Sequence record: OR544955
Source of the DNA: Escherichia phage vB_EcoP_EP32B
Reading direction: 5' to 3' (one strand)
DNA: 64,000 bases
Shown piece after piece: positions 2,115-41,348 of this stretch. A program made the position numbers and the translations under genes. The first letter of the stretch is position 1, and every line of letters starts with the position of its first letter. The notes below the pieces were generated by a model, which was not told the DNA's origin, searched no databases, and worked only from the letters and a program-made list of their open reading frames with translations.

Positions 2115-2345
2115 TTAGAAGTCTTCTTCCACATCCTCATCATCGCCTTCAAGTTCGGCACGCTTACCTGCTAAGGCATCCCTGACAGAAATATCATCTG
2201 TATCTTTTAATTCCGTTTCTTTTATACGTTTCTTATAATAAGCTTCCAATTCTTCAAGCCCTTCTAAGGTATGACAACTAGCAATTTTACCCATGAATTC
2301 GTCAATAGATGCTTCGTATAAAAATTGTTTAAATTCAAGTACCAT
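2115..2345 (-). CDS. uvsW.1: UvsW.1 small protein
   Basis: 76 aa acidic ORF immediately downstream of uvsW on same strand, as in T4. Confidence 0.6.
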   Translation of the reverse strand: MVLEFKQFLYEASIDEFMGKIASCHTLEGLEELEAYYKKRIKETELKDTDDISVRDALAGKRAELEGDDEDVEEDF

Positions 2346-2370
2346 TTTTATCTCCTAAGGGCCGAAGCCC

Positions 2371-3885
2371 TTATAAATTAATTGTTTTCATTACATAGTT
2401 AAATTTCTCATCAGCGTAACGTTGGATACGATCAATACCGTGTTTTAACAAGTAATTAAGATGAGTATACTTCTTTTTAGTATTTAATGATTTAGGTTTT
2501 ACACCTGCGTCATCTATGAGATCCCAAACTGTAGCAACAGCTTTAGAACCGTGCTTACGAAGCACACGACCTACGGTTTGAAGTACGATAATTTTTGATT
2601 TAACACCATGGGCAAAAATAACATGATGAAGATTCTTGACTGAAATACCAGTAGAGAATACTCCATATGATGCGACAATAATAATGCCTTTACCATTTTC
2701 TGCCATGACTTTAAGCGCATTACGTGTTTCAGTATCAACTTCACCTGATACGTAATAAACTTTTTCGTATCCAAGCTCTTTAATAGCTTCAAATATTTCT
2801 TTACCGTGTGTAACGTGTTTAAACATTACAAAGGCGTTCTCGTCTTTCTTAGCCAATTTGACTGAAAGTTGAGCAATCCACTTTGTACGACGTTTTAGTC
2901 CGGTAATAATTTTAACTTCTTCTTGGTATGTTTTACCTTTTAATTTAACGGCGAATTCGTCCGGATAACGAAGGAAAATACTATTAATCTTAAGCTCAGT
3001 TACCTGTCCGTCTTCCATTAATTTAGACGTGCTAACAGGACGGAAGATTTCGCCGAACATACCTACGTACTGCATTACATTGGCTTTTCCGTCTCTTAAT
3101 GAGCCGGATAAACCGAATTTAAACATGCAATTATTTAATCCTGAGATGATTGAAGAAATACTTTTGCCTGTTGCTAAGTGGCATTCATCATTCATCATCA
3201 TACCGAACTGAGAGAACCATTCTTTAGGCTGCTTAACTACCGTTTGCCATGTGCCAACAATAATTGGAGCGTCGTTTTTAGATTTGTCCGCTTTATCAGC
3301 ACCACCACCAATTTTCTTAATCATCGAATGACTAAACAAACGATAATCAACAAAATCGTTAGCCATCTGGGTTGTCAATGCTGTTGTAGGTACGATAATG
3401 AGAATTTTACCTTCATAGTTCTCTAGATAATACCGAGCTAAAAGTGCTTGGATTAGTGATTTACCTGCTGATGTCGGAAGGTTTAAAATTCGACGACGAT
3501 TAACTAGTCCTTCATATACTGCATCTTTTTGATACCAATGTGGTTCGATTTTGGCGTTGCCTGAATAAATTTCTTGTTTAGAAAGCCATGAGTCAAAATC
3601 TTCCCTGGTAAGGTCTTCAGTCTCAAAGATTTTAGGGTCAATCCATACAGAATAACTCATATTGTTACAGAACTTTTTTATTTGTCCTACAAGTCCATAT
3701 GGTAACAAACGATTGTAATCTAAAAGACGAATTCTACCATCCCATTGCCCATAGCGATATTTTGGGTTAAATTTATACCCGTCAGCTTCAAAGCTAAAAA
3801 AGTCACGAAGTTCGTAAAACGTACTTTCGTCGCATTCAATGCGAACGTGACTAAAATCATAAAAATGTACTTTAATGTCAGTCAT
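2371..3885 (-). CDS. uvsW: UvsW SF2 DNA/RNA helicase
   Basis: 504 aa; Walker A LPTSAGKS and DECH box visible. Confidence 0.9.
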   Translation of the reverse strand: MTDIKVHFYDFSHVRIECDESTFYELRDFFSFEADGYKFNPKYRYGQWDGRIRLLDYNRLLPYGLVGQIKKFCNNMSYSVWIDPKIFETEDLTREDFDSWLSKQEIYSGNAKIEPHWYQKDAVYEGLVNRRRILNLPTSAGKSLIQALLARYYLENYEGKILIIVPTTALTTQMANDFVDYRLFSHSMIKKIGGGADKADKSKNDAPIIVGTWQTVVKQPKEWFSQFGMMMNDECHLATGKSISSIISGLNNCMFKFGLSGSLRDGKANVMQYVGMFGEIFRPVSTSKLMEDGQVTELKINSIFLRYPDEFAVKLKGKTYQEEVKIITGLKRRTKWIAQLSVKLAKKDENAFVMFKHVTHGKEIFEAIKELGYEKVYYVSGEVDTETRNALKVMAENGKGIIIVASYGVFSTGISVKNLHHVIFAHGVKSKIIVLQTVGRVLRKHGSKAVATVWDLIDDAGVKPKSLNTKKKYTHLNYLLKHGIDRIQRYADEKFNYVMKTINL

Positions 3886-7694: not shown

Positions 7695-7717
7695 GGGACC
7701 GTAAGGTCCCTTTTTTT
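7695..7717. terminator. Bidirectional rho-independent terminator between rnlB and gene 24
   Basis: GGGACC-GTAA-GGTCCC hairpin with T-runs on both strands. Confidence 0.65.
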
Positions 7718-8999
7718 ATTCATCAATGATAATTTTTGGTAGCTTAACACCGAGTAAAACAGACAAGTCTGAACGTCCTGCCATTTTATCCATGTCCCCG
7801 CCATCAATTATTCTCGCTTCTTTTTCATCTTTTGCTACTGTGTAAGGATTTGCTGATAAGGCATATCTAACCAATAATCCGATAGACGGTTGCAAGCTTT
7901 CTGGATCAACTACAACTTTAAATGCACCGACATGTTCCGGGTCATCTAAATCCACTCCTTCAGTATATGGAGCATAAAAGATGGACCCTACAATTTCTTT
8001 TTCGCCGAGATTTTCTACAACACCCACAATAACATAATCTAACGGGCTGTTGGTATCGCAGTAAAGAGGTAATCCATTTGCCAAGAATCCATAAGCATTT
8101 TGTGAAAGATACTTGTCATCTTCTGGCTTATGTTTTAACCAACCGGAAGCAGCAAGAATAGCAGCTGCACGAGCTGAGGCTACACAAAACGTTGCAGTAT
8201 AAGTTGTCTCTTTTTGGATGTGTGATACCATTTCACACACCATTCGATATAACGAACGACCTGCTTCTGGAGCGGATGCATAGCTCAAGTCAATAAATCC
8301 GGTGTCAGTAATTCCAGTAACTTTATAACGTTTCGATACAGTAATTAAAGACTGAAGAATATCTTTATTAATTTCATCTGCCATTTCAGTAGCAAGCAAA
8401 TCTTCTAAGAAGTTAGGGGCATCAAATCCATTCGCTTCCAAATCTTGCGCTAATTCAACCGTGAGGCCAGTTTTAAGTTTACGAGATTTGACTGAAGTTT
8501 GCCATTTATTAATCTGGAATCTTGCATCAGAAATTTCGCTATCAGAGCTTTCAAATTTGCTTGTTACCGCTGCATCTGAAAATAACCGTACCTTTAAATG
8601 AACGACCGCAATCTGAAGAGCTAATTCTAGATCACTTTCTTGAATATCTGCAAATGGTGTATCTTCTAACACTTTATAGACGATATTATTATATTTGAAA
8701 AAATCGCCTTTATTTAGTGTGACTTTTGATTCTTCTGTGAGTTCGGTAATTTTTTCTCGGTCTACATATCCAACTTCACCAGCATAAGTAGCACCGGTTT
8801 TAAATGTGAATTCGTTATCTGGGTTAAGATATTTGATACCATAAAAAGCAGCAACAGGTTGATTAGTTCTTTGTGTTGCTACAATGTCAGAATATATTAA
8901 TTTAGTCGTAGCGCGAGTCAAAGCAACGAGATTTGGGCGACCAATTGAGTTGCTAGTAGACGTTGTAGATTCACGCAATAATTTTTGGATTTTACTCAT
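7716..8999 (-). CDS. 24: Head vertex protein gp24
   Basis: 427 aa, same as T4 gp24; gp23-like fold residues. Confidence 0.9.
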   Translation of the reverse strand: MSKIQKLLRESTTSTSNSIGRPNLVALTRATTKLIYSDIVATQRTNQPVAAFYGIKYLNPDNEFTFKTGATYAGEVGYVDREKITELTEESKVTLNKGDFFKYNNIVYKVLEDTPFADIQESDLELALQIAVVHLKVRLFSDAAVTSKFESSDSEISDARFQINKWQTSVKSRKLKTGLTVELAQDLEANGFDAPNFLEDLLATEMADEINKDILQSLITVSKRYKVTGITDTGFIDLSYASAPEAGRSLYRMVCEMVSHIQKETTYTATFCVASARAAAILAASGWLKHKPEDDKYLSQNAYGFLANGLPLYCDTNSPLDYVIVGVVENLGEKEIVGSIFYAPYTEGVDLDDPEHVGAFKVVVDPESLQPSIGLLVRYALSANPYTVAKDEKEARIIDGGDMDKMAGRSDLSVLLGVKLPKIIIDE

Positions 9000-9026
9000 T
9001 GCATTTTTTCCTTATGTGATATAGAT

Positions 9027-9034
9027 TATTTATA
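9027..9034 (-). promoter_or_regulatory. T4-type late promoter for gene 24
   Basis: TATTTATA on + (TATAAATA on -) upstream of gp24 start 8999. Confidence 0.5.
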
Positions 9035-9040
9035 AAGATT

Positions 9041-9070
9041 GTTTACAACGTATTTGGTATGTGATACTAT
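9041..9070 (+). promoter_or_regulatory. T4 early-type promoter (GTTTAC -35, TGATACTAT extended -10)
   Basis: Same motif family as the early promoters in the 41-60 kb region. Confidence 0.55.
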
Positions 9071-9100
9071 AGACTTATCAACTACAGAGGAGTAAACAAA

Positions 9101-9370
9101 ATGACTAAAGCACGTTTCTTACGAGATACTTTAAAAGTTCTGGAAGCTGAAGCAGTTAAGTTAGTAGAAAAATATGGTGCAAAAGTTAATGGTAATGCCT
9201 TCAACAAAGTATGGATGAAAGTTGATTCTGAAGCTCGAGCTAAAGGTTATTGGGCCACTGATAAACTTGCATCATTCAAAAACAAAGACGGTTCTCCAGC
9301 ATATATCCAAGAAGGTATGCCTAATTGGCAAAATATTTTGAAAACTTACATCAAAATTGCACAGAAATAA
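9101..9370 (+). CDS. Hypothetical 89 aa protein, antisense to the late cluster between genes 23 and 24
   Basis: ORF with GAGGAG SD and own early-type promoter. Confidence 0.5.
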   Translation: MTKARFLRDTLKVLEAEAVKLVEKYGAKVNGNAFNKVWMKVDSEARAKGYWATDKLASFKNKDGSPAYIQEGMPNWQNILKTYIKIAQK

Positions 9371-9380
9371 AACCAAAAAT

Positions 9381-9398
9381 GGGAGACCGAAGTCTCCC
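9381..9398 (-). terminator. Rho-independent terminator downstream of gene 23
   Basis: GGGAGAC-CGAA-GTCTCCC hairpin with T-run on minus strand. Confidence 0.6.
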
Positions 9399-9422
9399 AA
9401 AATAAGATTTAATCAATTAAGA

Positions 9423-10951
9423 TTAGATGCCTTTTACATATACACGGCGGAAGTAAGCGTTCTTACCAAGGCTGTTCAGGATAGACGGCATACCGGACTG
9501 GATGCGAGCACCTGGAGCCTGCAGGGAACTTTCAGCAAACGGGTTAACACCGATACCGTAACGAGTTTTGAAGCCCATTACCGGCTGGAAGTTCTTAGGA
9601 TCAGAACCACGCAGTGGGGTAAGTGCAACGTAAGGAGCATAGTAAATACCTGCATCCATTTCGTTAGCGCCTTTGTAACCAACGGTGAAGTAATCCTGTT
9701 TAGCATACTGGTCGATGTATACGCGGTATTTACCACCAAGTACACCGGCAAATACAGACTTAGTAGTGTCGGTATTAAAACCAGAAGCCAGACCCTGTGC
9801 AGCGTAAGAAATACCAGTATCAACTGAAGCCAGTACGTTAACTACGTTACGGGAAGCGATAATGAAGTTACCTTCACCACGACCGGTTTGACGAGCAATT
9901 TCAACTGCTTCTTTATCAATCTGGAACAACAGAGATTTAAAGCTTTCACCGGCCCAACGAGCACCACGGATATCAATCGGGTCCTGGAAGTCAAATACAC
10001 CAGCTTTAGAACCCGGAGTCAGGGTCATACCGGATTTACCAACCTGTGCTGAGTAGTTAATCCAATCAACAACTTCACGGTTGATTTCTAGCATAATTTC
10101 TGTAGCCAGAATACCACTCAGTTCAGCATCAGCATCCATACCGTGTACTGCACGGAGGTCTTGTGCTAATTCGATAGAGTAAGCAGCTTTCAGCTGGCGA
10201 GATTTAGCTTCGATAACTTGTTTATCGATACGGAAGCCCATTTCATTCCATGGGTTATCGGTAGAACCGTTGAAACCTTCCTGAAGTTCAGCGATAGAAG
10301 TAGCCATACCTTCAGCGATTTCTACCAGTGCACCAGCTTCCATTTGTTTCTTAACTTCGGCATCTAATTTAGCAGCATCGGTCGCATCGATTGTTACTTG
10401 AACAGAAGCTTGCAGATATACAGTACCAGTTTCCTGGAAGAAGTGAGTGCCAGAGCTGGGAATTTCTTAGCAGCACCCTGACCAGAGAACATCGCATCTG
10501 GGGCATACATCGGATGGAAAGCTTCTTTAGCGCCAGCAGCGATAGGGTCTTTACCATATACTGCACGGAGAGCAAATACCTGACCGGTCGGGCTGTTCAT
10601 AGGCTGAACACCACAAATATCAAAAGCGATCAGATTAGGAATAGCACGACGAACCATACCCATAACTGCTGGCCCAATTTGGGTTACTGCACCAGAGGTT
10701 TGACCTGCTGCGATGTTCTGAGCATTATAACCATGGTCACCACCAATTTCAGCTTCGGTCAAGAAAGAACCAAATGCCTGAGCGATTTTCTCGTCTTTAT
10801 ATTCAGGGGATACTTCGAAATCTTTTTCCTGGTTTTCGAAGATTTTAGCGATAATAGCCTGCTTGCTATTAGCGATTTCCGGCAGGCCTTCACCTTCCAG
10901 CAGTTCTTTCCATTTGTCTACGAGCTGAGCTTTAGTTTTGATAGTAGTCAT
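9423..10951 (-). pseudogene. 23: Major capsid protein gp23, disrupted by a frameshift near 10445-10455
   Basis: N-terminal 168 aa (ORF 10394..10951) and C-terminal part (ORF 9423..10343, frame open upstream to ~10450) both match T4 gp23 but lie in different frames. Confidence 0.85.
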
Positions 10952-11811: not shown

Positions 11812-11819
11812 TATTTATA
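11812..11819 (-). promoter_or_regulatory. T4-type late promoter for gene 22
   Basis: TATTTATA on + upstream of gp22 start 11781. Confidence 0.5.
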
Positions 11820-12428
11820 ATGCTTTTAAACTCTCTGCGAGAGCTTTAAATGCTTCATCAGCACTGTTTTTGGTGATTTCCACCGAATTTTCTGATTCTG
11901 ATATTTGTTTAGGAGTAACCCAAGCATCTGGAGCAGAAGGTCCCCACACGGCATCTACGCCGACGGTTAATTTAAATCCTTCGTTCACGATACGGTACCC
12001 TTTATTGGTGTCGGTTAAAGAACCAAGACCACGAGAGGAAACACCTGGAATCCAACCAGCTCGTATATTAGCAGCTAATTTATCGCCGGGACCATGGTCG
12101 CCTTCAATAATTCTAGCGCGTCCATATACATCGTTTCCTTTCCACCACATATCTTCAATAATGATAGCGGCTTGCATAGGGTCAACATTTGCGCGAGGTG
12201 GATGATTTAATTCTCCAAGGGCTTGTTTGGTTGCGCTTTTTCCAAAACGCGTTTAGGATATAAACGTTTATTTCGGTTAACAACCTCTGCCTGAAGAAAA
12301 ATACCTTCTATATAAAGCCCTGGTTTTAAGCCAGAATCTTTTCCATCATGAGATTCCAACATTGGAACGCCATCAATAATCTCACCGGGTTGACCCCAAG
12401 TTTCAATAAGTAACTCGGGTTTATTCAT
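11815..12428 (-). pseudogene. 21: Prohead core protease gp21, disrupted by a frameshift near 12207-12235
   Basis: N-terminal 65 aa (ORF 12207..12428) and C-terminal 138 aa (ORF 11815..12177, frame open upstream to a stop at ~12250) are in different frames. Confidence 0.8.
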
Positions 12429-41313: not shown

Positions 41314-41348
41314 GTTTACATAAGGATGATGGTGTGATACTATCATCC
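41314..41348 (+). promoter_or_regulatory. PeSL-like early promoter with stem-loop
   Basis: GTTTAC 41314-41319, TGATACTAT 41335-41343, inverted repeat GGATGAT/ATCATCC flanking the -10. Confidence 0.55.

Follow-up and report, generated by a model that had tools for sequence, protein, structure and literature searches.

Why should a small open reading frame with an early promoter of its own run antisense between two late head genes of a T-even phage? The question is raised by the gap between gene 24 and gene 23 in Escherichia phage vB_EcoP_EP32B (sequence record OR544955), of which we analysed a stretch of 64,000 nucleotides (hereafter the window; all positions are counted from its first letter). 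An earlier note, made from the letters alone, had described in this gap an 89-aa ORF with a strong Shine–Dalgarno sequence and a GTTTAC-type early promoter, and had suggested that the gene was gained at a former mobile-element site. On the evidence set out below we favour, with a probability of about three in four, the explanation that the Mosigvirus 23–24 gap holds a self-contained early unit, which would encode a small binding protein and sits in a slot that also serves homing endonuclease genes.

Positions 8900–9500 of the window were 99.8% identical with Escherichia phage moskry and at least 99.3% identical with dozens of further Mosigvirus (RB69-like) phages, and on this similarity we assign the window to Mosigvirus, as an RB69-like T-even phage. 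The left border of the slot is gene 24 (7716–8999, − strand, 427 aa; from the ORF list), whose product is annotated as the head vertex protein in SA79RD, RB69 and moskry. The right border is gene 23, encoding the major capsid protein (9423–10951, − strand, with its stop at 9423). Further to the left lie RNA ligase 2, 24.2-like ORFs and hoc, and to the right genes 22, 21, 68, 67 and 20. Two essential head genes, 23 and 21, were found to be frame-broken relative to all of the relatives examined. In gene 23 approximately 40 nt are missing or garbled at ~10386–10448, leaving ORFs at 9423–10343 and 10394–10951, and in gene 21 approximately 20 nt are missing at ~12235–12242, leaving ORFs at 11815–12177 and 12207–12428. 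The gene 23 deficit was absent from every other record in the phage collection, and both breaks are probably not biological but an artefact of the source's sequence or assembly. The promoter and the ORF are bracketed by an inverted repeat of 28 nt (8981–9008 and 9353–9380), imperfect at 75% complementarity; since the DNA is AT-rich, this repeat is likely to have arisen by chance.

The ORF was present in the ORF list at 9101–9370 on the + strand; it has an ATG start and a TAA stop and is antisense to both of its neighbours. A tblastn search with the encoded protein gave matches in 218 phage records, 216 of which covered at least 80% of its length; 120 records spanned the whole 601-nt region, and the protein was at least 90% identical in 119. 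In the records inspected, the ORF carries the annotation ‘hypothetical protein’. It is already annotated in about 120 Mosigvirus records, and as such is of low novelty and ordinary for a T-even genome. The protein matched the profile of PHROG 6003, a phage protein family of unknown function, with an E-value of 2.6e-45, residues 1–89 aligning with positions 1–90 of 90. Comparison with the homologue on the uncultured T4-like contig L013 (61% identical) gave a dN of 0.28 and a dN/dS of 0.14–0.16, and in the comparison with the homologue on contig L015 (69% identical) the synonymous sites were fully saturated (pS 0.81, dN 0.24). The overall dN/dS of about 0.13–0.16, together with the saturated synonymous sites, indicates that this is a protein gene. 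Its composition (34% GC, 23% GC3) is typical of the phage, so that the idea of a foreign composition was rejected. Judged from these comparisons, RB69-like (Mosigvirus) phages have in this ORF a genuine small gene that is conserved, and early timing is predicted for it.

Both inspection of the sequence and a generic σ70 scan placed a T4-type early (σ70) promoter at 9041–9070 on the + strand. The −35 element is GTTTACA at 9041–9047 (GTTTAC at 9041–9046; TTTACA at 9042–9047), followed by a 17-nt spacer, a TG at 9062–9063 and a −10 element TACTAT at 9065–9070. The generic scan scored this promoter 9/12 with the TG extension, and the features that define the early-promoter class, namely a GTTTAC-type −35, a spacer of ~17 nt and a TG-extended TAnnnT −10, are all present at 9041–9070. 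The pattern GTTTAC-N14-16-TGNTANNNT occurred 11 times in the window compared with 0.21 occurrences expected from shuffles (~50-fold enrichment), and all 11 matches lay on the + strand, which makes the ORF promoter one of a genuine class of strand-specific promoters. The other ten motifs are located at 41314–62453, also on the + strand. Transcription from the promoter upstream of the ORF may start near position 9077. The Shine–Dalgarno sequence GAGGAG (9087–9092, + strand) is positioned 8 nt 5′ of the ATG, and a GGAG-type motif is retained in the homologous slots. On the opposite strand, the gene 24 late promoter TATAAATA (+ strand: TATTTATA) runs from 9034 to 9027; it points away from the early promoter, whose −35 element is 6 nt distant. 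In record OL960576, the late promoter, the early promoter and the terminators are annotated exactly where their counterparts lie in the window. A six-way DNA alignment showed that the late promoter and the hairpin downstream of the ORF were invariant and that the −35 and extended −10 elements were kept across alleles, with the promoter spacer and the leader diverged. We read these conserved elements in a diverged background as a phylogenetic footprint.

The hairpin, TGGGAGACCGAAGTCTCCCA, was located at 9380–9399 by a terminator scan and in the sequence, and only 9 nt separate it from the stop codon of the ORF. Read on the − strand, where TTTTTGGTTT forms its tail, it is the canonical intrinsic terminator of gene 23; a T tail is lacking on the + strand. 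A search of Rfam RNA families gave sub-threshold matches only, on this terminator. Because the + strand has no U tract at the hairpin, early transcripts probably run on in part, antisense to the 3′ end of gene 23. The ORF transcript is thus directed towards gene 23 and away from the gene 24 late promoter. The earlier note had it converging on the transcripts of both genes, which is correct for gene 23; for gene 24 the two units diverge, their promoters lying back-to-back. The rest of what that note had described was borne out, including the 89-aa ORF, its strong Shine–Dalgarno sequence, the GTTTAC-type early promoter and the antisense placement between genes 23 and 24. The note would have been refuted if the ORF were absent or unconserved in close relatives, but it is conserved there (~119 Mosigvirus records at 90% identity or more), and the homology search led over the full length of the protein to a phage family.

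The product of the ORF has a molecular mass of 10.2 kDa and is basic, with a pI of 9.6–9.8 in the five alleles computed (9.8 in the window), the basic charge being milder in some distant family members. An AlphaFold2 model, built from a shallow alignment of seq­uences (seven in all), had a mean pLDDT of 81.6, falling to ~60 at residues 50–70, and a pTM of 0.69. It contained helices at residues 3–25, 31–47 and 76–88 and a β-hairpin at 56–70, so that the predicted fold is a three-helix bundle with a β-hairpin. Only Met1, Lys3, Phe6, Gly31, Asn32, Asn35 and Gln70 were invariant among nine diverse members, and no catalytic signature was seen in the protein. Pfam gave nothing above threshold for any of the nine family members searched; DUF4859 scored 17.4 bits against a cutoff of 22.6 bits in one of the nine and was set aside as chance. 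NCBIfam and PADLOC (defence and anti-defence families) likewise returned nothing at threshold, only noise such as a curcumin-reductase-like motif and JAB. Weak local matches in PDB sequence profiles, to kinetoplastid bS21m (E = 0.05) and to an RFC1 BRCT helix–strand motif (E = 0.08), were both gone when the broader family profile was used, and E. coli bS21 showed no similarity to the ORF protein. No specific structural match to the model was obtained in three fold searches (PDB, BFVD). Literature searches by protein accession found nothing, and those on the Mosigvirus transcriptome found nothing clearly relevant. When 1.84 billion representative proteins were searched exhaustively with a profile, eight matches were obtained. 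One of them, a 655-aa metagenomic protein with five or six cytochrome-b5-like repeats (P0013), matched residues 40–70, in the hairpin region, through the motif W-T-[DE]-KLA-x-[FY]-x-x-K-x-G-x-PAYI (summed E 5e-7). This motif is missing from the JS98-type members, the cytochrome-b5-like relation was rejected, and the match probably reflects chance or convergence.

With a broader profile search of 5.8 billion clusters, the ORF family amounted to 24 clusters. Its intact members are stand-alone proteins of 83–93 aa, none fused to another domain, and in the 24 clusters there was no recorded Pfam domain and, among intact members, no informative name. The family is phage-only. In T4-like genomes, every case examined was in the 23/24 slot and antisense between genes 24 and 23; these slot homologues come from Mosigvirus, from Dhakavirus JS98 and IME08, and from the uncultured T4-like contigs L013, L015 and L022. 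Those of Dhakavirus and of the three contigs are 33–70% identical and have the same synteny, the individual values against the window protein being 61% for L013, 69% for L015 and 34% for L022, the contig that carries P0012. As judged from this distribution, the family is an old resident of the slot in Mosigvirus, Dhakavirus and the three uncultured T4-like contigs. Outside this group, homologues are found among unannotated tiny ORFs that form long arrays on one strand, both in ABPH49 (filed under Vequintavirinae) and in comparable contigs reaching ~140 kb, and one siphovirus-like contig has a homologue between tail and replication genes. In RB69 as deposited, the ORF is split by indels into ORF189c and ORF188c, and it is truncated in mogra and 310Ecol104PP, indicating that it is dispensable. 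We therefore describe the ORF, as far as genome comparison can tell, as a mobile, dispensable accessory gene.

Across the T-even phages, the 23–24 gap was found in four states, and the pointer to segD proved to be the most informative part of the earlier note. As that note had it, some T-evens carry segD in this slot: in T4 and RB55, segD occupies the matching position in equal antisense orientation. The slot is empty in EC121, KPV15, STML-198 and Margaery, where a gap of 81–96 nt holds only the terminator and the late promoter. It contains the ORF only in the window, in most Mosigvirus records and in JS98, the ORF plus a SegD-like gene in JK45, LF82-31 and IME08, and a SegD-like gene only in T4, RB55, CGG4-1, MHG19 and Vettismorki. 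The Krischvirus slot has two small same-strand ORFs. In JK45, LF82-31 and IME08, the SegD-like GIY-YIG gene starts 3 nt past the stop codon of a JS98-type ORF and has no Shine–Dalgarno sequence of its own; the cassette occupies 2231–3160 in JK45 (L016) and 1516–2472 in IME08 (L029), LF82-31 being L017. The slot endonucleases are 55–63% identical between lineages, suggesting that both occupants of the slot are old.

A σ70-type promoter was found just past the gene 24 late promoter in every filled state examined (the window, JS98, JK45, CGG4-1, MHG19 and T4), and none was found in the empty-slot T4-like phages EC121, KPV15, STML-198 and Margaery. Upstream of T4 segD (L006, NC_000866, 2754–2782, − strand) it reads TTTACA-17-TATTAT with a TG extension, a 10/12 σ70 match, at a position that is homologous with the early promoter of the window and adjoins the gene 24 late promoter. 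According to a 2010 review, no segD-specific promoter was identifiable (Edgell et al. 2010, PMC2988022). In the empty gap of STML-198 (L010), ATTGTTTTACA was noticed beside the gene 24 late promoter; it is similar to the −35 region that filled slots have, and may have been left behind by a deletion.

JK45 (L016, NC_054940) is a Shigella phage filed under Tequatrovirus, and its genes 23 and 24 are 98–100% identical at the DNA level with those of this Mosigvirus window. Its slot ORF allele has 90–94% DNA identity and 93% protein identity with that of JS98, compared with 33% identity with the window protein. The switch spans the region from the gene 24 start to the gene 23 stop, with a 660-nt endonuclease gene placed cleanly after the ORF stop. 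LF82-31 is like JK45, being nearly identical with the window and carrying the alternative cassette. The JK45-type endonuclease was present at 95% identity or more in 33 records and at 90% in IME08. The Mosigvirus-type and JS98-type ORF alleles are 33–37% identical, inside flanks that are 98–100% identical. Homing with co-conversion would produce such a cassette swap, as would modular recombination bounded by the conserved capsid genes. In the window allele there was no endonuclease scar, only 9 nt from stop to hairpin and no SegD similarity. An endonuclease remnant was rejected for the ORF itself, as an hhalign comparison of its protein with T4 SegD gave a probability of 0.6% and there was no Pfam GIY-YIG match. 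The 23–24 gap is therefore a polymorphic homing locus, of which the window carries the Mosigvirus-type allele that lacks the endonuclease gene. The suggestion that the gene was gained at a former mobile-element site thus does not stand as worded: there is neither a scar nor SegD similarity, the ORF family is an old resident, and SegD-like genes are found behind the ORF or without it.

In the self-contained early unit that we favour, host σ70 RNA polymerase would start at 9041–9070 right after infection, and a ~23-nt leader with the strong Shine–Dalgarno sequence would direct translation of the 89-aa basic protein. The early transcript would meet the terminator of gene 23 in reverse orientation, and part of it would run antisense into the 3′ end of gene 23. 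The protein would most likely bind a host or phage macromolecule and act as a non-essential host-takeover or counter-defence factor; a binder role is suggested by its small size, the lack of catalytic motifs, the predicted early timing and the genomic context. The slot as a whole has long received insertions of homing endonuclease genes of the GIY-YIG type (SegD family); these lie either directly behind a promoter at the equal position, or 3 nt past the ORF, in which case they would share its promoter. A bolder proposal, which we consider unlikely, is that the protein is the founding member of a new early counter-defence or host-takeover family, or a modulator of SegD-type homing at its own locus. 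If it were such a modulator, the deep split between Mosigvirus-type and JS98-type alleles would represent an arms race with the endonuclease.

The locus could also be an RNA element in which the ORF is incidental. The early promoter would then send antisense RNA through the hairpin into gene 23, or its transcript would pair with late 23→24 read-through RNA, and the effect would be to damp premature or excess capsid gene expression. Read-through is made plausible by the + strand hairpin, which is without a T tail in the window and in all of the aligned relatives, and the promoter-then-hairpin geometry is constant whatever the cargo (the ORF, the ORF plus an endonuclease gene, or an endonuclease gene alone). 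However, strong purifying selection acts at the protein level (dN/dS 0.13–0.16, with saturated synonymous sites) and the strong Shine–Dalgarno sequence is conserved. Moreover, the protein family has members in unrelated phages, away from any gene 23, and many T4-like phages have an empty slot without such a promoter. We regard the RNA element as quite improbable; an antisense by-product, as a side effect of early transcription, is possible.

It is very improbable, in our judgement, that the ORF is tied to a SegD-type endonuclease, be it as a degraded fragment, as a helper or regulator, or as a protector of phage DNA from cleavage. The profile comparison with T4 SegD was negative (probability 0.6%), and either gene is found without the other: the ORF in about 120 Mosigvirus records, in JS98 and in three uncultured T4-like contigs, and the endonuclease in T4, RB55, CGG4-1, MHG19 and Vettismorki. 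In addition, the non-T4 homologues have no Pfam-recognisable endonuclease neighbour. The case for such a tie comes from JK45, LF82-31 and IME08, where the endonuclease gene, on the same strand 3 nt after the ORF stop and without its own Shine–Dalgarno sequence, is predicted to be co-transcribed and probably translationally coupled with the ORF. The ORF allele and the endonuclease gene also moved jointly into the Mosigvirus background, but co-conversion of flanking DNA would give joint movement anyway. As for a chance ORF in an AT-rich spacer, preceded by a fortuitous promoter match, the comparative data effectively refute it. The ORF is short, has no known domain and is interrupted in the RB69 record; its conservation, however, extends across genera with a dN/dS well below 1, and it belongs to a family of 24 clusters with intact members of 83–93 aa. 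Its promoter motif is ~50-fold enriched and strand-specific, conserved elements stand out in the alignment as a footprint against diverged surroundings, and AlphaFold2 predicts a fold with confidence. The self-contained early unit, encoding a probable small binding protein, is the reading that we retain.

Public records already annotate the ORF, the early promoter and the terminator, and the gene behaves like many another small, early accessory gene of the T-even phages. What the comparison of slots adds is of modest value. The four-state 23/24 gap is a clean natural homing locus, in which JK45 or LF82-31 and the window form a ready pair for the study of SegD homing and co-conversion, and the σ70 early promoter position common to all of the filled states supplies a candidate promoter for T4 segD.

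Among known systems, PeSLs are composite repeats of a promoter and an adjacent stem–loop that flank ORFans in the hyperplastic regions of T4-type phages (Arbiol et al. 2010, PMC2839356; Comeau et al. 2014, PMC4122927). Like PeSL cassettes, the unit in the window comprises a small ORFan, its own early σ70 promoter and a stem–loop, with variable presence among close relatives and module exchange. Unlike them, its only stem–loop is the gene 23 terminator, which is downstream of the ORF, and the unit lies inside a conserved head-gene block. No flanking direct repeats were found around the ORF, and a PeSL cassette was ruled out, as there is no stem–loop adjoining the promoter and there are no flanking repeats. 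PMC2839356 and PMC4122927 do not mention RB69, and a term search of the two did not find the 23/24 slot.

The T4 segD locus shares with the window the slot, the antisense orientation, the hairpin that serves as the gene 23 terminator, and a TG-extended σ70-type promoter at the equal position beside the gene 24 late promoter. It differs in its cargo: the window has no endonuclease gene, and the 89-aa protein encoded there is unrelated, lacking both a GIY-YIG motif and any similarity to SegD. What the ORF and SegD have in common is location, not family membership. Phage ‘morons’ and the small early accessory genes of T-even phages encode host-takeover or anti-defence proteins. The likeness of the ORF to these is one of architecture only, that of an autonomous promoter–ORF unit between conserved genes, and, as with morons, the ORF family is non-essential, patchy and common to unrelated phage groups.
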